In this document: positions 10,443-61,900 of the stretch, in pieces | Layout: each line of letters starts with the position of its first letter | Position numbering within the stretch: position 1 is the stretch's first letter | Source of the DNA: Laetmonice hystrix | Taxonomy: Eukaryota | NCBI GenBank assembly: GCA_965235115.1 | Contig: OZ249436.1 | Span: forward strand, 2,420,001-2,484,000 | DNA: 64,000 bases | Direction of reading: 5' to 3' | Notes under the pieces: model-generated | What the model saw: the letters and a program-made list of their open reading frames with translations, nothing else | Databases searched by the model: none | What the model was told of the DNA's origin: nothing | Program-made: the position numbers and the translations under genes

Positions 10443-11592
10443 TCTCTAAAACTGCCTCATACTACACGATTTATCAATGCTGTGACTCTTTCTCTAAAAC
10501 CTGCCTCACACTACACGATTTATCAATGCTGTGAGACTTTCTCTAAAACCTGCCTCACACTACACGATTTATCAATGCTGTGATACTTTCTCTAAAACTT
10601 CCTCACACTACACGATTTATCTCTAAAACCTGCCTTACACTAGGCCTACACGATTTATGAATGCTGTGATACTTTCTCTAAAACCTGCCTCACACTACAC
10701 GATTAATCAATGCTGTGATACTTTCTCTAAAACCTGCCTCACACTACACGATTTATCTCTAAAACCTGCCTTACACTAGGCCTACACGATTTATGAATGC
10801 TGTGATACTTTCTCTAAAACCTGCCTCACACTACACGATTAATCAATGCTGTGATACTTTCTCTAAAACCTGCCTCACACTACACGATTAATCAATGCTG
10901 TGATACTTTCTCTAAAACCTGCCTCACACTACACGATTAATCAATGCTGTGATACTTTCTCTAAAACCTGCCTCATACTACACGATTTATCTCTAAAACC
11001 TGCCTCACACTACACGATTTATCTCTAAAACCTGCCTCACACTACACGATTTATCAATGCTGTGATACTTTCTCTAAAACCTGCCTCACACTACACGATT
11101 TATCTCTAAAACCTGCCTCACACTACACGATTTATCAATGCTGTGATACTTTCTCTAAAACCTGCCTCACACTACACGATTTATCTCTAAAACCTGCCTC
11201 ACACTACACGATTTATCAATGCTGTGATACTTTCTCTAAAACCTGCTTCACACTACACGATTTATCAATGCTGTGATACTTTCTCTAAAACCTGCTTCAC
11301 ACTACACGATTTATCAATGCTGTGATACTTTCTCTAAAACCTGCCTCACACTACACGATTAATCAATGCTGTGATACTTTCTCTAAAACCTGCCTCACAC
11401 TACACGATTTATCTCTAAAACCTGCCTCACACTACACGATTTATCAATACTGTGATACTTTCTCTAAAACCTGGATCACAGTACACGATTTATTTCTAAA
11501 ACCTGCCTCACACTACACGCTTTATCTCTAAAACCTGCCTCACACTACACGATTTATCAATACTGTGATACTTTCTCTAAAACCTGCTTCAC
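10443..11592. repeat. Composite minisatellite: 32-bp core (ctctaaaacctgcctcacactacacgatttat) with or without a 17-bp module (caatgctgtgatacttt)
   Basis: Seen directly. The 49-bp and 32-bp units are interspersed. Confidence 0.95.
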
Positions 11593-11707
11593 ACAACCAT
11601 TCAAGATGTTTAAAAAAAATCTCTCATCCCACATGAAAGAGAAGAGGGGCGATCTATCGGATCGTTGTATTAAACTGGAAACGGCTCTGATTGGTTCGTT
11701 CTTTTTC

Positions 11708-11990
11708 GTTCGACGAGACGTTATGGGGACGTCTTTAGTCGACGTCTTTACCGGACGTCCACAGGCCGTCTTGTAAAGACGTCTTAGTGACGTCCTGAAT
11801 AGGCCTATAGGCCCCTATATATCACCGACCTAACTATGACGTCGACGAGACGTTGTGAGGACGTCTTTTGTCGACGTCTTCAGCAGTCGTCTAGAGGACG
11901 TCTGGTTACGACGAGTTAGTGACGTCCTGAATATGACCGACCAAATAGGAACGTCAATGAAACGCTGTGAGGACGCTACGGCAGCCCGCT
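11708..11990. mobile_element. GACGTC-rich degenerate repeats, probably the subterminal region of a decayed DNA transposon
   Basis: Repeated cgacgagacgtt..ggacgtc..tagtgacgtcctgaat blocks with a period of about 130 bp. A similar ACGT-rich stretch lies at about 14980-15100. Confidence 0.4.
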
Positions 11991-12099
11991 GACTTGAGAC
12001 AATCTCTTTTTTTTAAATCCAATAAAATGAACATGGCAGCTGCCCCCTACAGACTTTCAAGAGTGAACTCATTTCCGTCGTAGGCTACATTTTAGCCTA

Positions 12100-13864
12100 T
12101 GGGTCAAATCACCATGAGCGGGCCATTTGGGAAAGGTATACCATGAACGGGCCATTTTCAGGAGCCTATCACTCACACATCGTTGCATAATACGATCTTG
12201 CTCCTTCCTTGTCTCAGTAGGATACAGCGAATCCGTTGTGTGCTGCCATCTAGTGTATTCGTTGGTTGCGATAGTATGGTGTCACAGAATGTTTTCCCCT
12301 CGCGTATTTTTCGCATCTCCCGCCTGGTTCATGACGTTCGTTTCGGTGAGTGTCAATTTTCAGTTAGCACTTTCCAAATGACAGACCTGCCTGCAAATCT
12401 TTGGCGAGCTTTGGGGGAAGCATCATGTTACTAAATTATTAGTGATATTAGAAAAGTATCTTTAACAGAAAAATATAAATTAGGATGAAATCATTGGTTT
12501 TGTTTTCATAATTTCTGAATAAAAACACCAAGTCAGGGTAGGCCTAACCTTGAGTGGTCCAACACGTGACCATGAGTGGTCCCACCGCCGTCACCATGAG
12601 TGGGCCACCCGGTTACCACCCACCCAAAGGCCCCCATAGCTAATATTTTAAGATAAGTTACCGAAAAGAAATTGAACCAAATACTTTATTTGACCATTCA
12701 AGTTAAAGGGAGTCGTAAAATTCATTTTTTTTCGATTTATGGCAGTCTTAGAAACATTATGATTCCCATACCTTGGACTCCCAGTAACATCATGTGAGAC
12801 TGTTATGGCCCAGCGACCAGTATTTAGTAAGGAAAATATGCCAAATCTCTCGCAAATACGTAGCTCAGAATTAGCGAGCGGCCCACAGGATATTTGAGTT
12901 GGCCGCAGTCGGGCGATGATGACGCGTGATCACGTGACTTCCGGGTGTACATGCAGTATTTAGGTCAATGCTAGACTAGAGGAGGTGGACTAGAGGGAGA
13001 TTCCCTTCCACACCCGGAAGTCACGTGATCACGCGTCATCATCGCCCGACCGCGGCCAACTCAAATATCCTGTGGGCCGCTCGCTAATTCTGAGCTACGT
13101 ATTTGCGAGAGATTTGGCATATTTTCCTTACTAAATACTGGTCGCTGGGCCATAACAGTCTCACATGATGTTACTGGGAGTCCAAGGTATGCGAATCATA
13201 TGTTTCTAAGACTGCCATAAATCGAAAAATGAATTTTACGACTCCCTTTAAGGAAAGCAAACAGAAGGCATTTCTGGTGGCAGTGAAGAAAGAAAGAAGG
13301 CTGAAACGGGAGATGTGTCTGGGTGGCTATAGCAGGCCTAGGCCTAATGGCAAAGAAAGAAAAGCAATAGGCCTAAAAGGTAAAACAAAAAGTAGGGTTC
13401 AAGTCTATAAGGGAAGCTCGGTGTAGGCCTATACGGATGATCAGTGTGGGCAGTGCTGTCACGTGTAGATCTATAGGCATAGGGGCCTAAGTAGCTTACT
13501 GGGATTTATAATAATAATAATAATATAATGTAGATATAATAATAATAAAAGGTCTAATAATAATAATAGGCCTAATAATAATAATAATATTAATACCCCG
13601 GTCCACTCATGGTGACCCCCCGGTCCACTCATGGTACGTGGCCCCTGGCCCACTCATGGTGATTTTGGCTCCTACAACTTTTCGATTCCTCACACATTAT
13701 TTTTGAGTCTTTTTGAGGTCTTGCGCTCTTGATTTTTGAGAGAGCAAAATTTCCTACTTGTAAGATGATGTGCAGATTGATGGGATAGTGTGACTGTTAA
13801 GGAAACCACAGCCTTTCAAAATATTTGATACCAACAACCGGCCCACTTATGGTGATTTGACCCC
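12100..13864. mobile_element. Non-autonomous TIR DNA transposon with TA target and (G)GGG...CCCC ends (Tc1/mariner/pogo-like target preference)
   Basis: Left gggtcaaatcaccatgagcgggcc (12101) is the inverse of right ggcccacttatggtgatttgacccc (13840-13864). TA lies on both flanks. Internal copies of the accatgagtgg motif occur at about 12570-12605 and inverted at about 13600-13663. Confidence 0.8.
12707..13247. mobile_element. Kolobok-type foldback MITE nested in the element above
   Basis: TTAA target duplication (12703-12706 and 13248-13251) and AGGG...CCCT ends. Near-perfect inverted arms of about 240 bp (12707-12948 vs 13010-13247) surround a spacer of about 60 bp. Confidence 0.88.
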
Positions 13865-13896
13865 TAGGCCTATCCTATCTTCGACGTCATGGGTAG

Positions 13897-14236
13897 CTGG
13901 GCTTCCGCTAGCCGTTCGCCACGTTCGCATTGGCGAAAAACAGAGCAAAATGGCGAAAGAAAATATTGCAAAAAATACCATATTTTCGCCACACTGGCGA
14001 ATATAAAAATTCCCAGAAAGGCAAGGAAATTATTGCCATCAGACCGCTAAACCTAGGCCTACACATGAAATGTTCCATGTTGTATGAAAAAGTGTTTATT
14101 TCACGTATCAGTGGCATTGTCTTTTTTCGGTCGGGAGTCTCAAGATGTGGCTAAAAAAATTCTGATGTGGCTACAGGATTTGGTTACCCGTTTAGCTACG
14201 GTGGCTAAAGTAGATGATTGGCAAGAGGAAGCCCAG
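13897..14236. mobile_element. Short TIR element (hAT-like MITE)
   Basis: ctgggcttccgctagcc and ggcaagaggaagcccag are imperfect inverted termini, with subterminal tcgcca/tggcga/tggcta motifs. The TSD is unclear because the next element abuts it. Confidence 0.6.
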
Positions 14237-17200
14237 CTCCCAGTGAAGACGTGAGCTAATGCCATACTCATAATGAGCTCACCTGAAAGTCACAGGATGA
14301 GGTCATAAAGATGACCTAACACTGACATCACAGTGATGTCACAATTCTATCATGATGTGACTTCACGAAAAACTACCTCACTATGATGACACAGGGAACT
14401 CACATTGTGAGGTCATACTTTGATCTATCCGTTAGCTAACTGACATCATGGTCTTTGAGTTCATAGTGAGATCATCCTGAGAGGTCACAATATGAGGTTG
14501 CTGCGAGTTCATGGTGATGTAGTCAGTGGTGTCACAACTTCTCACAGTGTGAGGTCATACTGTGAGCTTTCTGTGAGCTTATGGTGAGGTCTCACCATAC
14601 CAAGTTCTGAAGTCATATCGTGAGCTTTCTGTGACCTGTTGGTGATGTATTTGTCAAAGCATCACAGTGATGTCACAATTCTATCATGATGTGACTTCAC
14701 GAAAAACTACCTCACTATGATGACACAGGGAACTCACATTGTGAGGTCATACTGTGATCTATCCGTTAGCTAACTGACATCATGGTCTTTGAGTTCATAG
14801 TGAGGTCATCCTGAGAGGTCACAATATAAGGTTGCTGTGAGTTCATGCATGGTGAGTTCGTGCATGGTGATGTAGTCAGTGGTGTCACAACTTCTCACAG
14901 TGTGAGGTCACACTGTGAGCTTTCTGTGAGCTTTCTGTGACATGTTGGTGACAAGGCTATATCCCATATACATGGAGATACCCAGTGGGCGCAGGACATC
15001 ATATATTTTGGGTGAATCTTAGTTGCCACGTTGACAACCATATTGCAACGTCTTACGTTAACAGGACGTCGACAAATTGACCTCAGTAGACGGCCTAACA
15101 GCAGGTATAGACTCCTCTATGGGTCTGATATATAATATACTCTATTCGTTGTATTTGTACAAATCCATAGCGAAAGATACACGTGGTATCCTCACCGTAG
15201 ATTTATATGTGCATTTAAACACTGTGTGAAAAAAGATATCTGAAAATAAATCCGGGGAAATGTAAAGTTTATACATGTTGTAGCAATAGTAAAGTGGCCA
15301 CAACGTCCGATAACCGATAGGTGGCAGCACAAGTGCCTGGGGGGACAGGGTGATTAATTGAGGGGTTTTGGCCCCGTACAATTTTAAACAATTAGAAAAA
15401 CATCACAGATCGTTTCTTTAGGTGGCAAGGAGGATATATTAACATAATTAGGTGAATTTATGCATAATTAAGAAAATTGACTAGATCACATTTCTGGCCC
15501 GCCCAGACGTTGTTGGAGAGTTGCACTGAAAGGTGATATCTTTCCTAAAGTTGCGGTAATTGGTCAAAAATGGTTCAAATTCTATAAAAAGTGGCGTTTC
15601 TATAGCCTAGGTGTTCTACACATTTCTAAGTGGATTCTATTTCAGATTTCTTAGGTAAAGTATTTTTAATTAATTAATTCTGAATAAAAAGGTGGACTTC
15701 ACAATCTGAACACTATAGCTCTTTTGATAATGCCAGGGGAGTAATCATACTGCTCCTGTATGCAGGCATGCATGGTCACTCTCTATGTACGCATACCCCG
15801 CAATCCTTATTATAGAAATACACTTTAAGAATTAATTATACTTTTAAATGAAATAAGTTGTTATCCACTTTACTGTTGGAGGAACCTTAGTGAAATTCTC
15901 AACGTTGCTAGGAATACCAAATCTCCAATGAGTCTTCCATTTCTAATCCATTATAACAGAAAACTGGTTAATTAATAACCTAAATAATTAGGGCTAAGTG
16001 TACTTGTGGCGCAACCTTCTGTCAGGAATAGGAAACTTTGAATACATCTGTCTGCCTGTTTTAATAGCTTATTTGGGGTACCTTTCATTCCCTTTCATAG
16101 GCTCCAACTTTGCTTATATTCACAAGACCTTTTGCCGTAAAATGTCTTAAGTTTGGGATAAAAGGATTCAGTACTTTTTTAAATACGGACCCTCCGTAAT
16201 TCTCCCATACAGCTACCCCGACCTGAATCCACCCTGCACGCGGGCTCCGACGCTGCCGGTCACGGCAACCGGCCGCCTGTCGGCCGGGGAATTGATAGCG
16301 AAATCCCACGCTTGCTGTGTCTTTCTGCCTGAATATGGATCATTATGAATCTTTGCGGTTACACCCCTCAGTATCTCCCGAATAAAAACCCTGCAAGTTT
16401 GGAACCAAAGTATCTGACTTTGTTTTGAGGGCGCAATGTAAATAGGACACGCGCAGCTGTAAAAGTGTTTGGGGGGGGGGGGGTGGGGGTAATAGGCGGT
16501 GGTGTCGTTTTAGACGAACCTGACATATTCTAGGACACCTTCTCACCAACGTCCAAAGTTGGGATCAAGTTATTCACCCGTTTTTAAATTCCATGTGGCC
16601 TGTGCCTAAATTATACCGCGGCCCGCTGACCCAGACCTTCCTGGAGTGCAGCATTCTGCACACAGCATAATACACGCAACGAGGTACAAGCGACCGCTGG
16701 AGTGGGAATATGACCTCGGGGTCATGAGCAGTACCCCAGGTTCAGCACACGTGTACTGGTTGGCGCGCAATTCAGTTGACCGAGTTCCTCCTGCATGCTC
16801 GGGTGCAGCCATCAAGACATCATTCTAGATTCTACGTCCCTCCAATACAGGCTACAAACACGTAAGTATAGCTATGTAATCTGTAATGATCTGCTTCATT
16901 TATTGAACTTAGGAAAGCCTCAACTAAGGAAACTAATATGTTGCTATTTCCCGCCACTTTAGATCGAGTATTCCATATGTTCTAAAATAGTTCTTCCAAT
17001 AACAGCCCCGCCTCTGATGCCATCTTACAGACATAGGCTACATATTTAGGCCTATACATGTGTATGTAGAGGACCTTCCCCCACACCCCTTTTTAATGTA
17101 GTCCCATGCAGAACTTTAAACCAACAGTCTCATATCGCCTTTCTGAACAAAAGATTCATACTTTTGACAGGATTGATTGGATATTGTTCCAATTTTGTAA

Positions 17201-18497
17201 TTATTATAATAGGCCTAGTCTCTTTCACTTTCAAGGTCTACATATTATATATGTAGATTTGTGTGTGGAAGTACATGTAGGTAGTATAGTGTCTATACTC
17301 GTTGGTTTGACCTCATTCTTGCTCATATGCCCAAAGTTCCTTACACTGAATGAGAGGGTGAGACCGCAGATATCATTATGGGATGTTGGCGGGCCATAAA
17401 AATAGGAATTAACCTACTTAGAGTGTGGAGAAATAAGATACCAGGCCGGGACTAGGTCAGGGTACTGTAACCCTGATGTTTGACATGTCAGCACATCATG
17501 CCATGTGTGAAGTATTTTATATTTAATCTACGCCAACGCATCAGTTTGTGTGTGTTCGTAGGGTTCAAAGCATTGTCTTCAATTAGAATACAGAATATGC
17601 ATGGCATCTTTGCTTGGTGTGATTATATGCTGGTAGTCCATAGCTAATGAATATTCTGATTTTTGTTTGGATGTGTTTGATAAGTTTCTAATAAACTTTT
17701 CTCTTTTCTTGGGACTTTCAGTGGAGCTGTACTGTCTTTGGCCATGAGCTGGAAGGATGAGATATAAAGCACTGCTGGTACGTGTCTTAAGAGTGTAGTG
17801 ATGTACTATACTTTCCACTATAAATACTATACTAAAATATTATGACTTACTGTAGTCATGTCAGAAGGGGGCTCTCGGTCTCGTCTCGATTCCGCATTTG
17901 AAAGTTCTATCAATATCTCAGGTAGTTTACCCGGTTATCCTACAAACCACACTTAAAGTGATGTGCATTTAACTAGTTGTAATCAGTTGTAATACGCAGA
18001 TTCGCATAAGTTATGACAAATTTTCCACGGCCCCACTATAGTCTAATGAGATGGATATGAACAACCCTAATATTGCCATTTTCAGGAATAGTGCAGTTTG
18101 ACAATGCAATGCTTTTGCAGTGTTTGAATATTATTATTGTATTTCCTTGAACATATCCAGGTATTTTGGTTTAGGAAAATTGATTAGATCTGCAAAGGTG
18201 GAAGATCCAGTGGTACTAATAAACTATGTAGAATTGCAATGGCCAATCATTAGAATTGTCCAGAGGTTGCCGACCTGAGCCATACATAAAGGCATTAATA
18301 TACAAAACTCTGGAAATTGCCACTGTGCAGTGTTGTAATAATAACAAATATCAAAAGTTTTTCAATATCAACTCTAATGGCTGCACTACAATGTTTATTT
18401 CTATACATTTTCAGATTTCAGCATGCTGATCTTACAGAAAGTCTGGAGCAAAATCTCGCAGCCATCATGAGGGATGTGGCAAAGCTCAAAGCAGTAA

Positions 18498-18910
18498 AGC
18501 CGGCCTCAGGTCGCCCTTGCGCCGCGCCGGATCAGTCGGCGACTGCCTAGGCCTATTTGGCGATAACCCACGACTGAGCCACGACGATCCACGACGAATC
18601 AGTCGTCGACCAAGGGTAACATGAGTGTGGTTGGGCCGGCGCGTCGACCGTCGTCGACCGAGAAGATCAGCCGTCGTAGAAGTAGAAATTGTTCAACTTC
18701 TACGCCGCGACGGAACAAGATTATAGGCCTACCAGTCGGCGATCGAGCGCAGTCGACCTGAGCGTGGTTGTAATTGATCGGCGACAAGATGCTGACAGTC
18801 GCAGGAAGGTGTACCCGATCTCCTCACAGGCGACATAAGCATGAAATTCACGTCAATTGCCGACGGTTCCGTCGCAGCGCAAGGAATCGCAGGGCGACCT
18901 GAGGCCGGCT
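18498..18910. mobile_element. PIF/Harbinger-like MITE
   Basis: Perfect 20-bp TIR agccggcctcaggtcgccct / agggcgacctgaggccggct with a TAA duplication on both sides (18495-18497 and 18911-18913). The interior is CGAC/GTCG-rich. Confidence 0.88.
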
Positions 18911-18945
18911 TAAAGCGCATCCCAGACGAACAAGATCGGAATGAA

Positions 18946-19212
18946 CAAACTGAGCTCTCTGGTCTAAGAAACTGAGCTCTATGGATGGTCTGCCAAACTG
19001 AGCTCTATGGACGGTCTGACAAACTGAGCTCTATGGACGGTCTGACAAACTGAGCTCTATGGACAGTCTGACAAACTGAGCTCTATGGTCTGACAAACTG
19101 AGCTCTATGGGCTGACAAACTGAGCTCTATGGGCTGACAAACTGAGCTCTCTGGTCTGACAAACTGAGCACTACGCCACTAGATTTAGGCCTATGGTCTG
19201 ACGAACTGAGCT
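18946..19212. repeat. 23-27-bp minisatellite (ctgacaaactgagctctatgg[acgg]t), about 10 copies
   Basis: Seen directly. Confidence 0.9.
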
Positions 19213-20094
19213 CCATCTTCTTCCCTTCCAGTGTGGACATGGACCTTTTTGTACTAATTATGATGTAATAAACATTTAAACCATAATAACTGTGTTTTTG
19301 ATAAGATCTAAAAATACATAATATAAACTCGCAAATATATCATAGTTAGCTCACCTGGTGAGTTTGCCTTGCAAACTCACAAACAGCTCACAGGAAGCTC
19401 ATTCTGTGAGTTGTGCAAACTCACAGAGAAGTCACAGCTAGCTCACATATTGAGTTCAAACTCACAAAAAGCTCACAGAAAGCTCATAGTGTGAGATTTG
19501 CAAACTCATAGAAAGGTCACACTTAGCTCACCTGGTGAGTTTGTAGTACAAACTCACAAACAACTCACAGGAAGCTCATTCTGTGAGTTGTGCAAACTCA
19601 CAGAGGGGTCACAGCTAGTTCACATGGTGAGTTCAAACTCACAAAAAGCTCACAGAAAGCTAACAGTGTGAGATTTGCAAACTCATAGAAAGGTCACAGC
19701 TAGCTCACATGGTGACCTCACCATGTGACTTTATAGTGAGTTAACCTACTTGCTTCAAAATGAGTCTGCTGTGACCTAACCATGTGATCTTTCCATACCT
19801 TTAATGTGAGGTCACAGTGAGCTCACTGTGAAGTTAGATTCTTCACTGGGAGGGTAGGTAGGGCCTACGTAGGCCTACGCTAAGCCTTGCTCAAGGTCAT
19901 ATCAGGCGTTAGCAGGGGCGTAGGCCTACCTAGACGTACGCTAAACCCTGCTCAAGGTTAGTGTATTTTACACAGGGCCCTATCTGACTTGTTCGACTGT
20001 CTATGCTCACTCCATCCGCCGTCGCCAAGAGGGCTGGAGAGACTCTCGCGGGCCAGGCCCCCTAGCGGGAGTACAGTGAAGCAGTCCTAGTGTT

Positions 20095-20125
20095 TTAAAG
20101 GGCCGACAACTTCCGGCAACACGTG
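20095..20125 (+). promoter_or_regulatory. Putative ZCCHC7 core promoter region
   Basis: CpG-rich stretch with an ETS-like acttccgg (20109) and an E-box cacgtg (20120), about 100 bp upstream of the predicted ATG. Confidence 0.4.
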
Positions 20126-20215
20126 TAGTGGCAGCGACCACGAGTGGAACGCCAACCCAACGCTGTCGAAGGAAACATACTAATATATCGAACTCGTAAA
20201 CAAAAGGAGATAATT

Positions 20216-20222
20216 ATGGAAG
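20216..20222 (+). CDS. ZCCHC7: ZCCHC7-like exon 1 coding part (ATG GAA G)
   Basis: atggaag|gtaaat. Phase 1 joins in frame to exon 2 to give MEGMMDEDED. An alternative start is the ATG at 21829. Confidence 0.6.
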
Positions 20223-20426
20223 GTAAATTGTACTGCTGTAGTCATTGTAAATCCAGCAATCCAGGCGTATAGAGGCAATCTGGCCATATGTTGCTCGCTC
20301 GGCTTGCTTGCCTCAAATATCGCCCAACTCCCTGTGTGGCTGTCGTGTGTGATTGCGAAATTCTCTGTCCCGTCTACTAAATTACTTTAAACTGTAACGT
20401 CGGGACTATAATGGCTGGGTGGACGA

Positions 20427-20902
20427 CAGTGGGTGAGATCAAATATGAGAGTTAACTATACCCCTGGTTTATCCAGGTGTTATCTCAAGAAAAAGTATAC
20501 CAGGCTCCAGTAAACATTTTGACAATACCTAGTCAGTAGGCTAGTTAAACACTTTGATAAAACTCAGGTAACCCTTACCTGACCCATCAGTCACACCTGG
20601 GTAACCCCCACTCCTACCAGTCAATAAGCTTGACTCTGAGTTTTGACCTGTCTCAGGTGTTAACCCACAGGTGGTTAACACTTTAGGTATAGGTTTTCTA
20701 TTGTATTCTAAAGACACCTGGGACCTTACTGAGATTAAGGGGACACCTGAGTTATATCTAGGTGTTTACAAGGGGGGTTTTAGCTTTTTAACACGTTGTT
20801 GAGACAGTGTTAACTCAGGACGAGGTCAAATTTTGGATTAGTAGAACACTTTCTAAATAGCGTTAACACCCATTTAACTTTTAGATTTGACCTTACACAG
20901 TG
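20427..20902. mobile_element. Old CACTA-like MITE in intron 1
   Basis: Degenerate ~29-bp TIR (cagtgggtgagatcaaatatgagagttaa vs the inverse of ttaacttttagatttgaccttacacagtg), with many internal cacctg/caggtg/gttaac motifs. Confidence 0.5.
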
Positions 20903-21826
20903 TAGATGTAATGCTGAAAAATTTACTTGGGGAAAAAACTCGATAATGTTGGGTTATGAATTTCTCATCCAAGATATTTAAAAGAAATATAGCTCAGCCA
21001 CAGTGGCACAGCCGTGAATTCTGGAATAAAGATTTTTCAGGGCCTAGTGACTAGATTTGTGTTGTGACTAGTGTTGTGACTACTAAGCCACTAGATCTAT
21101 CTGTCTATAATACGCTAGCCTCAGGCTCAGTCTTTACTAAAGACTTTAGGGCAGTGGTAGGTGTACATCACAAAAAAATTCAAAGTGAATATGGAATAAA
21201 TATGACCAGAATTAACTAACAATCAATAAGGCATCTTTTCGTCATAACTGTCTTAAGATAGGTATGTTGCAATCCACGTATTTGAGATCAGCGAATCCTA
21301 TCACAATATTTTTAACTATGACAGGTATACATACACCTATAGCTATGCATCACGGAAAGTTTCAAAACCTGGCTGAAACGTATTGTACACATTACGGGAT
21401 CAGGCACCAGGCTTCTTGTTCTATACTTTCCTTGGTGAAGGACCCTCATCCCATTATGTGTTTTTATGGTGAAGACAATAGGACTTCAACAAGTTAAAAA
21501 ATTTATTTATAACCATCACAACAGTTTTATTGTTTTGATTTAAACAAGGTTCAAATTTAAAACCACCCATCTTTAAATCCCAAAATATGATGAGGATGTG
21601 GCTAGAGTGTGTTCTCTTGATGCTACTGTTCGGATGAGCCATTCACAACAAAAATTTTAAATCACAAAATAAAATGTGTACCTTTCATCTATAACTACCA
21701 TTTGGTATAGAAATGAGCTTGTAAAGTAAAGTAGCTCCAGACTTGCAGTGATTTGACATGAATTATCTACCTGTGGTTTGGGTTAATAAAACTTGTGTCT
21801 TATAAAGATATGTCTCCTTATTGCAG

Positions 21827-22726
21827 GCATGATGGATGAAGATGAAGACGACATGTACAGAGATACGGTGACAGGAGCTCAAGATATTCAATATTACGGT
21901 TATTCTTCCGATGAAATGGATGAAGCAGAACTTGAAGCAGAACTCTACAGCCAGTTTCACTTTAATCCAGTGCCAGACGTCATTCCTGAATGTCGCAGTC
22001 CAAGCTCACAAAACCAGGTTGTCCTGGGACAAAGTCCAACAAAGGACAGAAGTGATAAGACAAGGAAAGAACATATTTCAGAGGTTCTTCCGACTCCTGA
22101 GGGTGCAAAGGTTCCTGTTCATCACCATTCAAATTCACGATCAAAACGGAAGTCCAACAACAAAAAAGTCACTGCTTTAAACCACACAGATCTTTCCAAG
22201 TTTCTTCAAAGGAGTTGTGACCCTCAACCGAAGAAATTCCCCAAAAGAGGCAGAAAGAAAAAATCATTGAAGTCGTCTAATTTGTCAGTTGTTGTAGTTT
22301 CTAGTGAAAGTGACACCGAGAAAAAAGAAAAAGATATACATGATAAATTTATAATAATTGATAGTATATCAAGTTGTGATGAGGATACTTCTATCAAAAT
22401 TACAAGTGATGATGACCCTAGATGGAAAGGCAAAAGGAAATTAGACTCTGAATGTAGAGTTATTAGCAGTACATCTGACAGTGGGGGGCAGAACTCTGTT
22501 GACTCCTCGGACAATGAGTCAGAATCTGTCGTGAGTCTGTCCTCCGTCGTGAGCCTGTCCTCTGTGGAATCAGAGAGTTCTTTAGACAGTGGCAGCAGTA
22601 ATGAACCTAGGAAGGCTGAAATGATATTGAATATCGCCAAGAACACGTCGTCATTCACACTGGACTGTGCTGAGTTGGAGGACTATGAGGACCTTTCCAT
22701 TGAGGACATTCACAAATCATTGGGAG
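21827..22726 (+). CDS. ZCCHC7: ZCCHC7-like exon 2 (acidic, Ser/Lys-rich N-terminus; ELEAELYSQFHF)
   Basis: Acceptor ttgcag|, donor |gtatga, 900-nt open frame. The E.E..LYSQ.H motif resembles the ZCCHC7 N-terminus. Confidence 0.88.
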
Positions 22727-22797
22727 GTATGATCACAATTTATGCAATCTTAATTTTTGAAGAAGAGTTTTTATCATGGCTTGAACCTCTAATTTAA

Positions 22798-23403
22798 AGA
22801 GACGCGTCACTTGTCTCAGTGGCGCCACCTCGTGGCAATTGACGAACTCTATTTTTACACGTTGCAGCGCGTTTTTTTACGTCACTCAATGCTGTCAACA
22901 ACACGGCAATGCAGAGGCAGAGTCAAGTCTGGCCGCTTCGGATCCCAGAAACAGTTTGACAAAAGGCTTCACGATGCCAGAAAAATGTACTTGACTATGT
23001 GTTTTAACATTGGAGTCTATGGGACCGATAAGACCCTTGGTAGTGAAAATGTCGATATCTCATGAATTTCCATGGTGACATATGATTTTTTTTAATCTAA
23101 AGTGTTCAAAACAAGTCATGCAACAATTCTGAGAAGTATTTTCAGAATCTCTGGGTTAGAAATGTCTGAAAAAAATCTTCTCTCTTCTAATTCGAACCAA
23201 AAATTTCACGTATCTCTCTCTACTGTAGACTGTAGTAGTGCGAGTTGAAGGCCTATCTTCAAATGCTCATAACTCAGGATCCGATATGGTGACCCGCCAT
23301 TTCCTTTGCACCAAAATACTCGAAAAATGTAGAATTATTTTATGTGAAAGTAGCCTGAAAATCTCTGGGTCAGAAATTTTTGACTTATTGGTGTCGAGTC
23401 CCT
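22798..23403. mobile_element. Kolobok-like non-autonomous element in intron 2
   Basis: TTAA on both sides (22794-22797 and 23404-23407). Imperfect 13-bp TIR agagacgcgtcac / gtgtcgagtccct with AG...CT ends. Confidence 0.7.
22819..22837 (-). promoter_or_regulatory. Candidate CTCF-binding motif
   Basis: The minus strand reads tgCCACGAGGTGGCGCcac, close to the CTCF core consensus. Confidence 0.5.
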
Positions 23404-23500
23404 TTAATTGTCTATAGATCTGTTTAAAATTCAGTCATGTCCACAACAGGTTCCAACTCCCATGCTTGACTAGTGGTAGTGGTTATTGGCATCTGGTAGC

Positions 23501-23879
23501 ACAACAGTTGTCAGTTTAGATCCAGGTTCTCTGACAAATAATGATCACTAGTGTTAGAATGATAGACCACTTATTTGAACTGATTCTCCATGACAGGAAT
23601 GTAGCCTGCATTGCTTCTTACAACAACCAAACAAACAGCATATTTTGTGGTTTTGTGTGTTGCATCTAAAAAAATACTTGGAATACCTGTAAGAACATTA
23701 TTATTCATGAAGTGATGAGAAAATAAAGTGGAACCTTTATTTCTACGGTGCCTTTCACACAGAGTAATTATTGCTTGGTGCTCTCATCGCCTGAATCAGT
23801 TCAAATTAGTGATGATCATTTCAGCACTAGTGATCATTATTTGTCAGTTTAGACCTGGATCTAAACTGACAACTGTTGT
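23501..23879. mobile_element. Inverted-repeat (foldback) element in intron 2
   Basis: acaacagttgtcagtttagatccaggt..ctgacaaataatgatcactagtg (23501-23586) is mirrored at 23793-23879. Confidence 0.7.
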
Positions 23880-23942
23880 CAGTTTAAACCAGTTGTCAGT
23901 TAAGACCTAAACAAATGTCGTTTTCACTCAATGAATTTGCCA

Positions 23943-24247
23943 TGTATAGACAACCGTTATCTTGGGTGCACTCGTTTTGACTTGCCCTGTATAGACAACC
24001 ATTATCTTGGGTGCACTCGTTTTGACTTGCCCTGTATAGACAACCATTATCTTGGGTGCACTCGTTTTGACTTGCCCTGTATAGACAACCCTTATCTTGG
24101 GTGCACTCGTTTTGACTTGCCCTGCATAGACAACCATTATCTTGGGTGCACTCGTTTTGACTTGCCCTGCATAGACAACCATTATCTTGGGTGCACTCGT
24201 TTTGACTTGCCCTGTATAGACAACCATTATCTTGGGTGCACTCGTTT
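23943..24247. repeat. 45-bp minisatellite, about 7 copies
   Basis: Unit tgtatagacaaccattatcttgggtgcactcgttttgacttgccc seen directly. Confidence 0.96.
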
Positions 24248-24276
24248 TTCATGCACATGTTAATAATTTTCTTCAG

Positions 24277-24422
24277 AATGTGACTGGAGTGTTATTCCCA
24301 AGGATCACACTACTGGTACATCCTTTGTGAATGCTGGGAGTCGGTACTTTAAAGCTTTAAATATTCGCTGCCACAACTGTAATGAGCGAGGACATCTCTC
24401 CAAAGTTTGTCCTAAGCCGAAG
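24277..24422 (+). CDS. ZCCHC7: ZCCHC7-like exon 3 (WSVIPKD...RYFKALNIRCHNCNERGHLSKVCPKPK; zinc knuckle 1)
   Basis: cttcag| ... |gtactc, with a CX2CX4HX4C motif. Confidence 0.92.
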
Positions 24423-25924: not shown

Positions 25925-26011
25925 GTAAAAACAATCATTTCTTACTGTAGGAAGGTTACCATATCACTGTTATTATACTTGGCCAAACTATGCATAGAGG
26001 TGCATTTCAGG

Positions 26012-31901: not shown

Positions 31902-34900
31902 CATTTTTGATACGTCAAATTGAAACTACGCCCCCCAAAATTATGATTCTTAGGCCAGATGTATAACTGTCAAACTACCTCACTGTAGTGTTTGTATGGG
32001 TACTAGGCCAGCCGGTAAGATGTAGGGGCTTCTCACTCTACTGGTTGGCCTTCCCCACTGCTTGGCCCCACAGTGTAGACTACTGTTTGGCCTCACTGTA
32101 GGCCTACTCTTTGGCCTCACTGTAGTGTTCGCTTGGGTGCTAGGCCAGACAGTATACCTTGTAGCCATTCCTCCCTGTACTGTTTGGCCTTCCTCTACCG
32201 TTTGCTTGTATACAAGAGTAGCCAGTAGTATAGGGACGCCTCATGTTTCATGTTTCCATGCCTTTATTGTCCAGGAGGAAGGCCATCCGTTTCGTCTATC
32301 ATCTTCTCCCATCTAATCTATGTCCCCTACAGACCATCTGTAAGTGTCCGACAACGTTGTCAGGTCGTCCCAATGACTGTTTGCCGTAAAGCTTTAGTTA
32401 ACAATGGAAAATGACGTTGTACGCCTTTTCTATATCAGATATCCCATCCTCAAGTAACAAACAAACAAAGGAAGGTTACCGAGATTTTCCAGGCAAGAAA
32501 CAACAGGGTGCAGCACAACTCCACTGAAGCGGAGGGGGGGGGGGGGGGTCCCCGACTGCACTGCTACCTTGCGGCTAGCGGTGGAATCACCACGTACTGC
32601 CAGGCACCTGTGGCTCTGAGGCGAGAGACAGGTTAAGGCAATGATAAGCGAAAAATGGCTACATTTTTGATACGTTAAATTGAAACTAAGCCTCCCAAAA
32701 CTATGATTCTTAGGCCAGATGTACGACTGTCAAACGTATAGGTCTCGTACGTTCGCTACAGATATATGGTTGTGATGTGTACACTTCGCATTTGAGTATC
32801 TTCTCCAGATGTTAGCATTAGATGCTCCTCGCCTGTACCTTTCATTTCCACTACCTCACTGTAGTATTTGCATGGGTACTAGGCCAGCCGGTAAGATTTA
32901 ATGATTTCTCACTCTACTGGTTGGCCTTCCCCACTGCTTGGCCCCACAGTGTACTGTTTGGCCTCACTGTAGGCCTACTCTTTGGCCTCACTGTAGTGTT
33001 CGCTTGGGTGCTAGGCCAGACAGTATACCTTGTAGCGATTCCTCCCTTACTGTTTGGTCTTCCTCTACCGTTTGCTTGTATACAAGAGTAGCCAGTAGTA
33101 TAGGGACGCCTCATGTTTCATGTTTCCATGCCTTTATTGTCCAGGAGGAAGGCCATCCGTTTCGTCTATCAATTACTCCCATCTAATCTATGTCCCCTAC
33201 AGACCATCTGTAAGCGTCCGACAACGTTGTCAGGTCGTCCCAATGACTGTTTGCCGTAAAGCTTTAGTTAACAATGGAATATGACGTTGTACGCCTTTTC
33301 TATATCAGATATCCCATCCGCAAGTAACAAACAAACAAAGGAAGGTTACCGAGATTTTGCAGGCAAGAAACACCAGGGTGCAGCACAACTGCACTGAAGC
33401 GGGGGGGGGGGGGGGGGTCCGACTGCACTGCTACCTTCCGGCTAGCGGTGGAATCACCACGTACTGGCAGGCACCTGTGGCTCTGAGGCGAGAGACAGGT
33501 TAGGGCAATGATAAGCGAAAAAATGCTACATTTTTGATGCGTCAAATTGAAACTAAGCCTCCCAAAATTATGATTCTTAGGCCAGATGTACGACTGTCAA
33601 ACGTATAGGTCTCGTACGTTCGCTACAGATATATGGTTGTGATGTGTACACTTCGCATTTGAGTATCTTCTCCAGATTTTAACGTTAGATGCTCCTCGCC
33701 TGTACCTTTCATTTCCACTACCTCACTGTAGTGTTTGCACCTTTCATTAGGCCAGCCGGTAAGATTTAACGATTTTCCACTCTACTGGTTGGCCTTCCCC
33801 ACTGCTTGGCCCCACAGCATACTGTTTGGCCTCACTGTAGGCCTACTCTTTGGCCTCACTGTAGTGTTCGCTTGGGTGCTAGGCCAGACGGTATGCCTTG
33901 TAGCCATTCCTCCCTGTACTGTTTGGTCTTCCTCTACCGTTTGCTTGTATACAAGAGTAGTCAGTAGTATAGGGACGCCTCATGTTTTATGTTTCCATGC
34001 CTTTATTGTCCAGGAGGAAGGCCATCCGTTTCGTCTATCATCTACTCCCATCTAATCTATGTCCCCCACAGACCATCTGTAAGCGTCCGACAATGTTGTC
34101 AGGTCGTCCCAATGACTGTTTGCCGTAAGGCTTTAGTTAACAATGGAAAATGACGTTGTACGCCTTTTCTATATCAGATATCCCATCCCCAAGTAACAAA
34201 CAAACAAAGGAAGGTTACCGAGATTTTGCAGGCAAGAAACACCAGGGTGCAGCACAACTCCACTGAAGCGGAGGGGCGGGGGTCCCCGACTGCACTGCTA
34301 CCTTGCGGCTAGCGGTGGAATCACCACGTACTGGCAGGCACCTGTGGCTCTGAGGCGAGACACAGGTTAAGGCAATGATAAGCGAAAAATGGCTACATTT
34401 TTGATACGTCAAATTGAAACTAAGCCTCCCAAAACTATGATTCGTAGGCCAGATGTACGACTGTCAAAGATATAGGTCTCGTACGTTCGCTACAGCTATA
34501 TGGTTGTGATGTGTACACTTCCCATTTGAGCATGTTCTCCAGATTTTAACATTAGATGCTCCTCGCCTGTACCTTTCATTTCCACTACATCACTGTAGTG
34601 TTTGCACCTTTCATTAGGCCAGTCGGTAAGATTTAAGGATTTCTCACTCTACTGGTTGGCCTTCCCCACTGCTTGGCCCCACAGTGTACTGTTTGGCCTC
34701 ACTGTAGGCCTACTCTTAGGCCTCACTGTAGTGTTCGCTTTGGTACTTGGCCAGACAGTATACCTTGTAGCCATTCCTCCATGTACTGTTTGGTCTTCCT
34801 CTACCATTTGCTTGTATACAAGAGTAGCCAGTAGTATAGGGACGCCTCATGTTTCATGTTTCCATGCCTTTATTGTCCAGGAGGAAGGCCATCCGTTTCG

Positions 34901-55900: not shown

Positions 55901-58900
55901 TACCGAGATTTTGCAGGCAAGAAACACCAGGGTGCAGCACAACTGCACTGAAGCGGGGGGGGGGGGGGGGTCCGACTGCACTGCTACCTTCCGGCTAGCG
56001 GTGGAATCACCACGTACTGGCAGGCACCTGTGGCTCTGAGGCGAGACACAGGTTAAGGCAATGATAAGCGAAAAATGGCTACATTTTTGATACGTCAAAT
56101 TGAAACTAAGCCTCCCAAAACTATGATTCTTAGGCCAGATGTACGACTGTCAAACATATAGGTCTCGTACGTTCGCTACAGCTATATGGTTGTGATGTGT
56201 ACACTTCCCATTTGAGCATGTTCTCCAGATTTTAACATTAGATGCTCCTCGCCTGTACCTTTCATTTCCACTACCTCACTGTAGTGTTTGCACCTTTCAT
56301 TAGGCCAGTCGGTAAGATTTAAGGATTTCTCACTCTACTGGTTGGCCTTCCCCACTGCTTGGCCCCACAGCATACTGTTTGGCCTCACTGTAGGCCTACT
56401 CTTAGGCCTCACTGTAGTGTTCGCTTTGGTACTAGGCCAGACAGTATACCTTGTAGCCATTCCTCCATGTACTGTTTGGTCTTCCTCTACCGTTTGCTTG
56501 TATACAAGAGTAGCCAGTAGTATAGGGACGCCTCATGTTTCATGTTTCCATGCCTTTATTGTCCAGGAGGAAGGCCATCCGTTTCGTCTATCATCTACTC
56601 CCATCTAATCTATGTCCCCTACAGACCATCTGTAAGCGTCCGACAACGTTGTCAGGTCGCCCCAATGACTGTTTGCCGAAAAGCTTTAGTTAACAATGGA
56701 AAATGACGTTGTACGCCTTTTCTATATCAGATATCCCATCCCCAAGTAACAAACAAACAAAGGAAGGTTACCGAGATTTTGCAGGCAAAAAACACCAGGG
56801 TGCAGCACAACTGCACTGAAGCGGGGGGGGGGACTCCGACTGCACTGCTACCTTCCGGCTAGCGGTGGAATCACCACGTACTGGCAGGCACCTGTGGCTC
56901 TGAGGCGAGAGACAGGTTAGGGCAATGATAAGCGAAAAATGGCTACATTTTTGATGCGTCAAATTGAAACTAAGCCTCCCAAAATTATGATTCTTAGGCC
57001 AGATGTACGACTGTCAAACGTATAGGTCTCGTACGTTCGCTACAGCTATATGGTTGTGATGTGTACACTTCCCATTTGAGCATGTTCTCCAGATTTTAAG
57101 ATTAGATGCTCCTCGCCTGTACCTTTCATTTCCACTACCTCACTGTAGTGTTTGCACCTTTCATTAGTCCAGTCGGTAAGATTTAAGGATTTCTCACTCT
57201 ACTAGTTGGGCTTCCACACTGCTTGGCCCCACAGTGTACTGTTTGGCCTCACTGTAGGCCTACTCTTAGGCCTCACTGTAGTGTTCGCTTGGGTGCTAGG
57301 CCAGACAGTATACCTTGTAGCCATTCCTCCCTGTACTGTTTGGACTTCCTCTACCGTTTGCTTGTATACAAGAGTAGCCAGTAGTATAGGGACGCCTCAT
57401 GTTTCATGTTTCCATGCCTTTATTGTCCCGGAGGAAGGCCATCCGTTTCGTCTATCATCTACTCCCATGTAATCTATGTCCCCTACAGACCATCTGTAAG
57501 CGTCCGACAACGTTGTCAGGTCGTCCCACTGACTGTTTGCCGAAAAGCTTTAGTTAACAATGGAAAATGACGTTGTACGCCTTTTCTATATCAGATATCC
57601 CATCCCAAAGTAACAAACAAACAAAGGAAGGTTACCGAGATTTTGCAGGCAAGAAACACCAGGGTGCAGCACAACTGCACTGAAGCGGGGGGGGGGGGGG
57701 GGGACTCCGACTGCACTGCTACCTTCCGGCTAGCGGTGGAATCACCACGTACTGGCAGGCACCTGTGGCTCTGAGGCGAGAGACAGGTTAGGGCAATGAT
57801 AAGCGAAAAATGGCTACATTTTTGATGCGTCAAATTGAAACTAAGCCTCCCAAAATTATGATTCTTAGGCCAGATGTACGACTGTCAAACGTATAGGTCT
57901 CGTACTTTCGCTACAGATATATGGTTGTGATGTGTACACTTCCCATTTGAGCATGTTCTCCAGATTTTAACATTAGATGCTCCTCGCCTGTACCTTTCAT
58001 TTCCACTACCTCACTGTAGTGTTTGCACCTTTCATTAGGCCAGCCGGTAAGATTTAACGATTTTCCACTCTACTGGTTGGCCTTCCCCACTGCTTGGCCC
58101 CACAGCATACTGTTTGGCCTCACTGTAGGCCTACTCTTTGGCCTCACTGTAGTGTTCGCTTGGGTGCTAGGCCAGACGGTATACCTTGTAGCCATTCCTC
58201 CCTGTACTGTTTGGTCTTCCTCTACCGTTTGCTTGTATACAAGAGTAGCCAGTGGTATAGGGACGCCTCATGTTTCATGTTTCCATGCCTTTATTGTCCA
58301 GGAGGAAGGCCATCCGTTTCGTCTATCATCTACTCCCATCTAATCTATGTCCCCCACAGACCATCTGTAGGCTAAGCGTCCGACAATGTTGTCAGGTCGT
58401 CCCAATGACTGTTTGCCGTAAGGCTTTAGTTAACAATGGAAAATGACGTTGTACGCCTTTTCTATATCAGATATCCCATCCCCAAGTAACAAACAAACAA
58501 AGGAAGGTTACCGAGATTTTGCAGGCAAGAAACACCAGGGTGCAGCACAACTGCACTGAAGCGGAGGGGCGGGGGTCCCCGACTGCACTGCTACCTTCCG
58601 GCTAGCGGTGGAATCACCACGTACTGGCAGGCACCTGTGGCTCTGAGGCGAGACACAGGTTAAGGCAATGATAAGCGAAAAATGGCTACATTTTTGATAC
58701 GTCAAATTGAAACTAAGCCTCCCAAAACTATGATTCTTAGGCCAGATGTACGACTGTCAAACATATAGGTCTCGTACGTTCGCTACAGCTATATGGTTGT
58801 GATGTGTACACTTCCCATTTGAGCATGTTCTCCAGATTTTAACATTAGATGCTCCTCGCCTGTACCTTTCATTTCCACTTCCTCACTGTAGTGTTTGCAC

Positions 58901-61900
58901 CTTTCATTAGGCCAGTCGGTAAGATTTAAGGATTTCTCACTCTACTGGTTGGCCTTCCCCACTGCTTGGCCCCACAGTGTACTGTTTGGCCTCACTGTAG
59001 GCCTACTCTTAGGCCTCACTGTAGTGTTCGCTTTGGTACTAGGCCAGACAGTATACCTTGTAGCCATTCCTCCCTGTACTGTTTGGTCTTCCTCTACCGT
59101 TTGCTTGTATACAAGAGTAGCCAGTAGTATAGGGACGCCTCATGTTTCATGTTTCCATGCCTTTATTGTCCAGGAGGAAGGCCATCCATTTCGTCTATCA
59201 TCTACTCCCATCTAATCTATGTCCCCTACAGACCATCTGTAAGCGTCCGACAACGTTGTCAGGTCGTCCCAATGACTGTTTGCCGAAAAGCTTTAGTTAA
59301 CAATGGAAAATGACGTTGTACGCCTTTTCTATATCAGATATCCCATCCCCAAGTAACAAACAAACAAAGGAAGGTTACCGAGATTTTGCAGGCAAGAAAC
59401 ACCAGGGTGCAGCACAACTGCACTGAAGGGGGGGGGGGGGGACTCCGACTGCACTGCTACCTTCCGGCTAGCGGTGGAATCACCACGTACTGGCAGGCAC
59501 CTGTGGCTCTGAGGCGAGAGACAGGTTAGGGCAATGATAAGCGAAAAATGGCTACATTTTTGATGCGTCAAATTGAAACTAAGCCTCCCAAAACTATGAT
59601 TCTTAGGCCAGATGTACGACTGTCAAACATATAGGTCTCGTACGTTCGCTACAGCTATATGGTTGTGATGTGTACACTTCCCATTTGAGCATGTTCTCCA
59701 GATTTTAACATTAGATGCTCCTCGCCTGTACCTTTCATTTCCACTACCTCACTGTAGTGTTTGCACCTTTCATTAGGCCAGTCGGTAAGATTTAAGGATT
59801 TCTCACTCTACTGGTTGGCCTTCCCCACTGCTTGGCCCCACAGTGTACTGTTTGGCCTCACTGTAGGCCTACTCTTAGGCCTCACTGTAGTGTTCGCTTT
59901 GGTACTAGGCCAGACAGTATACCTTGTAGCCATTCCTCCCTGTACTGTTTGGTCTTCCTCTACCGTTTGCTTGTATACAAGAGTAGCCAGTAGTATAGGG
60001 ACGCCTCATGTTTCATGTTTCCATGCCTTTATTGTCCAGGAGGAAGGCCATCCATTTCGTCTATCATCTACTCCCATCTAATCTATGTCCCCTACAGACC
60101 ATCTGTAAGCGTCCGACAACGTTGTCAGGTCGTCCCAATGACTGTTTGCCGAAAAGCTTTAGTTAACAATGGAAAATGACGTTGTACGCCTTTTCTATAT
60201 CAGATATCCCATCCCCAAGTAACAAACAAACAAAGGAAGGTTACCGAGATTTTGCAGGCAAGAAACACCAGGGTGCAGCACAACTCCACTGAAGCGGAGG
60301 GGCGGGGGTCCCCGACTGCACTGCTACCTTGCGGCTAGCGGTGGAATCACCACGTACTGGCAGGCACCTGTGGCTCTGAGGCGAGAGACAGGTTAGGGCA
60401 ATGATAAGCGAAAAATGGCTACATTTTTGATGCGTCAAATTGAAACTAAGCCTCCCAAAATTATGATTCTTAGGCCAGATGTACGACTGTCAAACGTATA
60501 GGTCTCGTACGTTCGCTACAGCTATATGGTTGTGATGTGTACACTTCCCATTTGAGCATGTTCTCCAGATTTTAAGATTAGATGCTCCTCGCCTGTACCT
60601 TTCATTTCCACTACCTCACTGTAGTGTTTGCACCTTTCATTAGTCCAGTCGGTAAGATTTAAGGATTTCTCACTCTACTAGTTGGGCTTCCACACTGCTT
60701 GGCCCCACAGTGTACTGTTTGGCCTCACTGTAGGCCTACTCTTAGGCCTCACTGTAGTGTTCGCTTGGGTGCTAGGCCAGACAGTATACCTTGTAGCCAT
60801 TCCTCCCTGTACTGTTTGGACTTCCTCTACCGTTTGCTTGTATACAAGAGTAGCCAGTAGTATAGGGACGCCTCATGTTTCATGTTTCCATGCCTTTATT
60901 GTCCCGGAGGAAGGCCATCCGTTTCGTCTATCATCTACTCCCATGTAATCTATGTCCCCTACAGACCATCTGTAAGCGTCCGACAACGTTGTCAGGTCGT
61001 CCCACTGACTGTTTGCCGAAAAGCTTTAGTTAACAATGGAAAATGACGTTGTACGCCTTTTCTATATCAGATATCCCATCCCAAAGTAACAAACAAACAA
61101 AGGAAGGTTACCGAGATTTTGCAGGCAAGAAACACCAGGGTGCAGCACAACTGCACTGAAGCGGGGGGGGGGGACTCCGACTGCACTGCTACCTTCCGGC
61201 TAGCGGTGGAATCACCACGTACTGGCAGGCACCTGTGGCTCTGAGGCGAGAGACAGGTTAGGGCAATGATAAGCGAAAAATGGCTACATTTTTGATGCGT
61301 CAAATTGAAACTAAGCCTCCCAAAATTATGATTCTTAGGCCAGATGTACGACTGTCAAACGTATAGGTCTCGTACTTTCGCTACAGATATATGGTTGTGA
61401 TGTGTACACTTCCCATTTGAGCATGTTCTCCAGATTTTAACATTAGATGCTCCTCGCCTGTACCTTTCATTTCCACTACCTCACTGTAGTGTTTGCACCT
61501 TTCATTAGGCCAGCCGGTAAGATTTAACGATTTTCCACTCTACTGGTTGGCCTTCCCCACTGCTTGGCCCCACAGCATACTGTTTGGCCTCACTGTAGGC
61601 CTACTCTTTGGCCTCACTGTAGTGTTCGCTTGGGTGCTAGGCCAGACGGTATACCTTGTAGCCATTCCTCCCTGTACTGTTTGGTCTTCCTCTACCGTTT
61701 GCTTGTATACAAGAGTAGCCAGTGGTATAGGGACGCCTCATGTTTCATGTTTCCATGCCTTTATTGTCCAGGAGGAAGGCCATCCGTTTCGTCTATCATC
61801 TACTCCCATCTAATCTATGTCCCCCACAGACCATCTGTAGGCTAAGCGTCCGACAATGTTGTCAGGTCGTCCCAATGACTGTTTGCCGTAAGGCTTTAGT

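Follow-up and report, generated by a model that had tools for sequence, protein, structure and literature searches.

The 64,000-nt window analyzed here (Laetmonice hystrix contig OZ249436.1, positions 2,420,001 to 2,484,000, renumbered from its first base) contains the 3' part of an unc-13 gene, a non-coding stretch that includes multi-copy DNA, a second gene whose exons carry CCHC zinc knuckles, and an array of an 867-bp satellite (Table 1). The unc-13 exon is 91% identical to that of Owenia fusiformis and 88-90% identical to those of molluscs and a nemertean, which places the host among the lophotrochozoans. Short words of the form TA-G(1-4)C(1-4)-TA, which we call the family, recur in this DNA, and the main one is TAGGCCTA, the TA-GGCC-TA form. 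An earlier sequence-only reading of the window had taken these words for the excision footprints of a TA-targeting transposon. Below, "the block" is the multi-copy DNA at 11600-20090 and "the element" is a candidate transposon bounded by terminal inverted repeats (TIRs) at 12100-13864; counts in bases 1-32950 leave out most of the satellite. We find that the insertions at TA are real, young, and stereotyped, and that they are most likely the excision footprints of a TA-targeting transposon with GG ends, copied further along with the repeats in which they lie.

Table 1. Features of the window and sites of the TA-flanked words
Feature	Position	Description
unc-13 gene, 3' end	2096-2380	last exon
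Minisatellite allele, copy 1	10641..10648	+6, TA -> TA-GGCC-TA; in a 49/32-bp minisatellite
Minisatellite allele, copy 2	10777..10784	same event as at 10641
Multi-copy non-coding block	11600..20090	at least 8.5 kb, nested repeats; right end near 20090; contains 23 of all 26 family sites that lie outside the satellite
Nested putative scars	11800..11821	made up of a GGCC and a GGCCCC scar with additional TAs; exceeds the paralogous empty site near 11932 by 20 bases
TAGGCTA and TAGCCTA words	12081..12099	adjoin the left side of the element
Candidate TIR element	12100..13864	TA-flanked, non-coding; ends TGGGTC../..GACCCC
Nested miniature inverted-repeat transposable element (MITE)	12702..13251	TTAA-flanked, AG..CT ends, Kolobok-like; near-perfect 550-bp palindrome, very high depth
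TAGGCCTA within (TAA)n run	13567..13574	run interrupted in register
TAGGCCTA	13865..13872	adjoins the right side of the element, whose target duplication is the first TA of this word
Two TAGGCCTA sites, 18548 and 18724	18548..18731	also in a high-depth contig
Complex site	19171..19193	about 20 extra bases ending in TAGGCCTA at 19186; last unit of a 22/26-bp array; no clean +6
Zinc-knuckle (CCHC) gene	21.8-27.6 kb	knuckles observed in its exons; putative ZCCHC7, the label of the earlier reading
867-bp satellite	31900-64000	37 monomers, mean 2.7% apart
Satellite allele TA-GAC-TA	32076..32082	+5; first monomer, most divergent, array edge
Fixed TAGGCCTA of the 867-bp unit	32099..32106	adds six bases where two 18-bp subunits meet; present in every one of the 37 monomers, up to 63341
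Satellite allele TA-GGC-TA	58368..58374	+5; monomer m31
Satellite allele TA-GGC-TA	61838..61844	monomer m35; copy of the 58368 event via a four-monomer duplication

The enrichment against a Markov background that the sequence-only reading had expected was found for the 8-mer. In bases 1-32950, TAGGCCTA occurs 18 times, compared with 0.48 expected at order 2 and 1.35 at order 4, and it ranks first among the TA-NNNN-TA words there. The whole window has 54 copies, compared with a mean of 0.82 and a maximum of 4 in 100 shuffles; 37 of these 54 are the single fixed copy of the 867-bp satellite unit. The remaining copies are not spread evenly. Bases 10400-20100 hold 17 (0.34 expected), and the other 22.2 kb outside the satellite hold none (0.18 expected). 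When the longer and shorter variants are included, the contrast is 25 sites to 1 (binomial p 4e-11, with one duplicate merged and boundaries that were picked after the data had been seen). No family site was found in 2401-10400 (605 TAs) or in 21801-27900 (363 TAs), which bears out the near-absence reported for 2.4-10.4 kb and for the zinc-knuckle gene body. The words listed in the earlier reading were all found in place, save that the one put at 18725 starts at 18724. CpG depletion was ruled out as the cause of the cluster because the 2.4-10.4 kb region has a similar observed/expected (o/e) CpG ratio and is yet free of scars.

The words are uniform in form. TAGGCCTA accounts for 17 of the 25 sites and is thus the dominant form. 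The base order is always G then C, with the reverse TA-C..G-TA at background. Four longer variants occur (TAGGGCTA, TAGGGCCTA, TAGGGGCCTA, and TAGGCCCCTA), and in none of them does a run of G or C exceed four, the length of the run at the end of the element. No target preference beyond the TA was detected in 26 reconstructed sites, whose flanks otherwise had nothing in common. Clumping was mild: 10 of 24 sites have a neighboring site within 40 bases, compared with 4.6 expected (p 0.039).

Empty and filled versions of the same sequence were found at six places, with TA on both sides of the insert and added bases that are not present in the flanks. The tandem arrays had been offered as internal controls. 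They do show the form of TA, a few bases, and TA, but the five alleles listed from them are three events. In the minisatellite, the +6 allele is present in 2 of 26 units, within two 136-bp blocks that share two linked substitutions and differ at one position, so the two copies go back to one event. In the satellite, monomers m31 and m35 are identical (0.0% apart), and their TA-GGC-TA alleles are therefore also one event. This site is filled in 2, empty in 33, and unmatched in 2 of the 37 monomers. The closest empty monomer, m25, is 0.3% away, and the filled pair lies deep in the tree. Since it is nested among empty sisters at this distance, the TA-GGC-TA allele is derived and recent. The claim that the alleles are insertions and not deletions is thereby established for m31/m35; for the other pairs the direction is given by parsimony only. 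The TA-GAC-TA allele is filled in 1 monomer, empty in 35, and unmatched by the pattern in 1. Among the 36 aligned satellite monomers, the TA-3-TA form made up two of the three non-homopolymer insertions of more than one base, the third being a 7-base tandem duplication. The satellite also contains a recent four-monomer duplication, in which m30-33 equal m34-37, and an internal region made of 18-bp subunits.

An empty-site search with 27 sites within the window gave clear paralogues only for the minisatellite, the 11800 site, the (TAA)n run, and the 867-bp unit of the satellite. The nested scars at 11800 and the fixed word of that unit add two internal controls to those of the sequence-only reading. 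At 11800, pairwise alignment placed a 20-base gap with 11 of 12 bases matching beyond it, whereas MAFFT opened no such gap. The (TAA)n run has further breaks at 13505-13560, TAGATA and AAGGTCTA, which are possibly decayed scars or those of another family. The two copies of a duplicated segment at 30970-30985 and 31378-31390 differ by a four-base insertion, TA to TA-AT-TA, with the same geometry and another interior.

The words in the block are young or constrained, since only 3 one-mismatch copies lie beside the 17 exact ones, a background level (5 in the 22.2 kb outside). For the satellite, the insertion rate per TA was estimated at 0.14-0.25 times the substitution rate per base (95% Poisson range 0.017-0.88), or at 0.07-0.12 times when the GGC event alone was counted. 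The basis is two events, 58 TAs, and a tree of the satellite whose total length is 0.14-0.25 substitutions per site; with so few events, a tree distorted by conversion, and an array that was noticed for those events, the rate is an order of magnitude at best. The net change from TA to TA-x-TA, its enrichment, its youth, and its amplification with repeats are thus observed in the window, and the direction of the change in one case.

The cluster had been described as lying in intergenic DNA. It coincides instead with the multi-copy block, and at least two of its sites (18548 and 18724) predate the arrival of the block here. Depth was taken from the contigs of four runs (X1-X4) of one sample, compared over 11600-23900, and gives no exact copy number. 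In X1, contig depth was 2785-3022 at 16.5-19.4 kb and 59-66 at 20060-22821, and X2 and X3 were alike; the X1 contigs over 20060-22821 carry at most one difference each. Contigs over the left arm of the element had a depth of about 600-700, roughly 10 times single-copy. These 40-50-fold and 10-fold steps mark 11.6-20.1 kb as repeated DNA. X4 record 30 covers 18213-18876 with 8 gaps, and X1 record 4 has 8 extra letters within 18218-18524. Judging by these lengths, no letters are missing at 18548 and 18724, so both words should be present in the high-depth contig. Being common to it, they would be older than the spread of the block, and the position of the cluster in multi-copy DNA means that some scars arrived with the repeat. 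Within 19121-19416 the multi-copy contig is 14 letters short, and among the rows listed the left-out letters fall at 19174-19179, beside the word at 19186. X4 record 29 lacks 12 letters in 16832-17323, which has two 6-base sites; this fits empty alleles, with exact positions unseen, and was not counted. The X4 cover of the block is very uneven, with a peak at 18.2-19.4 kb; it may be RNA and was not used as evidence.

No recognizable coding frame or RNA family was found in the block (Pfam on its frames; Rfam on 1-34000, 0 hits). Helitrons have TC at the 5' end and, at the 3' end, CTAG followed by T and preceded closely by a hairpin. The right end of the block has a Helitron-like CTAG-T at 20087-20091, near the drop in depth, and no hairpin at this end was better than shuffle (z -0.29, +1.35, and -1.35). 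CpG o/e is mostly 0.7-1.2 in the repeat block and mostly 0.4-0.6 in the zinc-knuckle gene body (21800-27900), where the lower values are the pattern expected from gene-body methylation. Downstream of that gene, at 29018-29700, a perfect (CGTC)171 tract starts a repeat with CATGACCTTG-type motifs.

A GGGG...CCCC transposon had been proposed at 12100-13864. The element there does have TA on both sides and G-run ends, but the TIR quoted for it is a composite, and the two ends match at 17 of 20 bases. A single copy was seen. It has nine subterminal 14-bp motifs, five forward on the left and four inverted on the right, arranged in outer and inner groups. Six family sites lie inside it, and nine lie in the 1239 bases of element and flanks outside the MITE. 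The GG and CC interiors of the words match its ends (right CCCC, left TGGG), the GAC at 32076 does not, and the element may be linked to the scars. Outside both G-run ends, GCCTA sits symmetrically, which fits either re-insertion of the element into its own scar or ends that start with GGCC.

The MITE nested in the element was ruled out as the source of the scars because it has a TTAA duplication and the scar sites are not TTAA. One contig joint skips 12702-13248, the MITE. Other TTAA-flanked or TTAA-like non-autonomous elements lie at 22796-23407 and 29865-30211, both with Kolobok-like ends, and at 20452-20866. Across the nested MITE, at 12610-13470, there is an open frame of about 74 codons that is possibly a captured coding fragment, and 6-base scars keep its frame.

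On balance, if by no wide measure, we regard the words as excision footprints of a TA-duplicating cut-and-paste DDE transposon family ending in GG(GG)...(CC)CC. An element would enter a TA to give TA-element-TA, of which the window has one example. The non-transferred strand would then be cut about two bases inside each end, as in Tc1/mariner chemistry, which would leave TA-GG-3' overhangs on both flanks. End-joining that retains both overhangs would give TA-GG-CC-TA, the dominant product. Trimming of one overhang would give TA-GGC-TA, and a deeper nick with three to four bases retained would give TA-GGGG-CC-TA and TA-GG-CCCC-TA. All of these predicted products occur in the window. Each scar has two TAs, and a second hit could produce nested scars such as those at 11800-11821. 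Scars in repeats multiply along with them, as is partly shown here, when arrays duplicate and when the 11.6-20.1 kb block spreads. What we infer are the filled intermediate, the places of the cuts, and the enzyme. The repeated insertion and excision suggested in the sequence-only reading is thus consistent with the enrichment, the form of the alleles, the one polarized allele, the TA-flanked G-ended element, and variants with no more than four G or C; the conjectural part is the tie to a particular element or enzyme.

In Tc1/mariner transposition, the non-transferred strand is cut a few bases inside the element, and what stays behind between the TAs is a footprint of 2-4 bases from the start or the end of the element (PMC6943129). 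Sleeping Beauty leaves TACAGTA/TACTGTA (PMC6943129), ZB leaves 0-3 bp (PMC7913693), BZ leaves CA/TG of less than 3 bp (PMC12455594), and Passer leaves 0-4 bp (PMC9976928). The scars resemble Tc1/mariner and pogo footprints in the TA duplication around 2-4 bases that can be read as element ends, the short size range, and the one dominant product with trimmed variants. They differ in that the interior is GG and CC and not of the CA/TG type, and in that they form a dense natural signature whereas the others come from assays. In their mechanism the scars would work like a Tc1/mariner footprint, a label that we use as an analogy and not for superfamily membership. The element, with its 17/20 terminal match and TA on both sides, has the TIR and TA duplication of IS630/Tc1/mariner elements. 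The Sleeping Beauty-type word TACAGTA/TACTGTA itself occurs 25 times in bases 1-32950, compared with 5.8 expected, with 12 copies in one minisatellite and the rest scattered, including in introns.

Zator elements have GG..CC ends and a three-base TWA duplication. The scars differ from this: empty sites such as acacTAcacg lack TWA, and the net insert is TA plus 3-4 bases. Zator is related to the IS630/Tc1/mariner group, ITm (PMC7386202). Kolobok, with a TTAA duplication and RR..YY ends (PMC9587614), was ruled out for the scars because their sites are not TTAA. MULE/Mutator elements have an 8-11 bp duplication (PMC6446971) and were ruled out for the element, whose flanks have no common 8-11 bp repeat. 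Among animal transposons, ISL2EU of the PHIS superfamily has TIRs that usually start with GG and an AT duplication in A|AT|T (PMC4482050), and it is alike in the GG-starting TIRs (right CCCC and left TGGG in the element) and in the two-base duplication. PHISTA transposons are PHIS members with TA duplications (PMC12730594) and thus combine this duplication with a superfamily of G-rich ends, but they were reported from rust fungi. Of the PIF/Harbinger duplications, the TA here fits PHISTA only and not TWA.

Footprints have been scored across genomes as a mutation class before, in rice (PMC4423477) and, with Sleeping Beauty, genome-wide in mouse tumors (PMC4378557). The difference is that the rice scars are heterogeneous and the mouse system is engineered; neither describes natural repeats saturated by one word. 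In Trichoplax, an ACAGT "microsatellite" is over-abundant in non-coding DNA and was proposed to be a transcription-factor site, with neither "footprint" nor "excision" in the paper (PMC2871265). It is a different word, and the likeness is that one short TA-associated motif is unexpectedly abundant in non-coding animal DNA. None of the literature matches listed for TAGGCCTA concerned transposon scars, by title or abstract start, and none of those for TACATGTA with footprint and transposon concerned such scars, by title. Footprints as such are textbook knowledge, and the novelty lies in the GG-CC type and in its natural density.

Several observations weigh against an excision origin. TAGGCTA/TAGCCTA occur 5 times, compared with 3.0 expected, and the 6-mer variants are likewise not clearly enriched, so that most of the single 7-mers counted in the sequence-only reading carry no weight. 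The allele at 32076, which that reading had included as a GG..CC-type insertion, shares the geometry, but its GAC interior, in the most divergent monomer at the array edge, fits neither GG..CC nor the ends of the element. A check of 9 further arrays and 7 pairs of duplicates turned up no GG-CC scar, and removal of the word at 12539, considered as an insertion into a subterminal motif, did not clearly restore such a motif. The left end of the element is TGGG and not GGGG, and only one TA-flanked, G-ended TIR pair was found in 33 kb, compared with 26 family sites. The search for an autonomous transposase that had been called for with the TIR turned up none. In a metagenome scan with a 19-base TIR pattern, 58 of 58 loci lacked both the TA flank and TAGGCCTA and were chance matches in bacterial and other contigs. 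Pfam found no transposase in 85 frames (84 of at least 45 aa in 11.6-21.8 kb and the first large downstream exon), with two weak sub-threshold hits, and phmmer with the open fragment of the element gave three uninformative hits, all to repetitive proteins and none to a transposase family. An Atlas search with this fragment yielded nothing usable. From the literature, the duplication is AT in ISL2EU (PMC4482050) and TA in every allele here, Sailor has GT or CC ends and TATA (PMC8533490), and no animal family with GG ends and a TA duplication appears in the text passages compared. Natural excisions in rice were mostly messy (n=94: 8 perfect, 43 with deletions, and 58 with filler; PMC4423477), and scars as uniform as these are notable and would therefore need a tidy repair route. 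Separately, a scan of viral contigs for paired TAGGCCTA gave 121 loci, the 25 densest of which are short stretches; the four whose surroundings were viewed proved to be tandem repeats or clusters due to chance, with no animal-like or transposon context.

One variant keeps the transposon and changes its ends. The element would truly end in the palindrome GGCC, with PIF/Harbinger-like ends and a TA duplication as in the fungal PHISTA, and its four-base GGCC overhangs would pair and ligate to exactly TA-GGCC-TA. Its limits would then be the TAs at 12093 and 13871, and GCCTA would belong to both terminal repeats. This would account for the symmetric GCCTA outside both G-run ends, which otherwise requires two separate scars, and for one product at 17 of 25 sites, and PHIS elements with TA duplications are known, if from rust fungi only (PMC12730594). 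However, serial re-insertion of the element into its own scar also puts scars on both sides. The GGGG-CC and GG-CCCC variants would remain unexplained without slippage, the left arm is one G short, and PIF/Harbinger excision is often precise, as for mPing (PMC4423477). We consider GGCC ends unlikely taken singly, although a transposon excision of one kind or the other, with the GG-ended reading and this variant taken jointly, is likely.

Another possible explanation is that no full transposition takes place. A TA-specific nuclease or an abortive transposase could break the TA with a two-base stagger, and repair could add a fixed short G/C filler, so that no element was ever there. The ratio of scars to elements in the window, about 26 to 1, and the high satellite rate estimate would suit this explanation. 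So would the lack of a filled intermediate: no whole element was seen at a scarred TA among the indel rows (12 of 152) and the loose ends (24 of 1554) that were listed. Against it, a matching G-ended, TA-flanked element is present, and we know of no enzyme that adds a fixed GGCC. We regard abortive cleavage as improbable.

The cluster could also consist for the most part of a motif, structural or protein-binding, that belongs to the repeated block and its nested repeats and was amplified and perhaps selected, with few of the sites being insertions. The concentration of the family sites in the block (23 of 26), with at least two common to its copies, and the word at 19859-19928 as part of a small duplicated unit agree with this, and the low decay could mean constraint. 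AGGCCTA may resemble the ZFX/ZNF711 motif. However, neutral tandem arrays and the (TAA)n run have gained the word afresh, always as a TA duplication with filler, and the flanks of the sites have nothing in common beyond the TA. A motif of this kind as the main source is, in our view, improbable. Ordinary slippage, chance, or assembly error is very improbable and already rejected for the 8-mer: the independent events are few and the 7-mers are at background, but the inserted G/C bases are absent from the flanks, two sites are also in independent contigs, and the Poisson p is about 1e-21 for 16 copies of TAGGCCTA against 0.34 expected.

Under the reading that we prefer, excision of a GG-ended transposon, a wider and more doubtful suggestion can be made. 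A GG..CC-ended, TA-targeting transposase, whose lineage has so far not been linked to TA sites in animals, may drive ongoing hit-and-run mutagenesis in certain chromosomal compartments, with a scar rate per TA of around a tenth of the substitution rate per base. The palindromes that are over-represented in many eukaryotes, each in its own lineage (TAGGCCTA here; TACATGTA, TACCGGTA, and words with ACAGT elsewhere), would in that case share a single overlooked origin as a general mutational signature, in place of a role as transcription-factor motifs or microsatellites. Assays of single loci are the usual way to study footprints. If the footprints are real at this density, they would be a countable natural signature in which an insertion of set form, 5-8 bases long, keeps a record of departed elements. 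Such a signature could date transposase activity, and it could mislead motif discovery by recreating the same palindrome. Tandem arrays provide a ready means to polarize and rate the events, and from the GG-CC interior one would predict a TA-targeting transposase, so far uncatalogued, whose elements have G-run ends.

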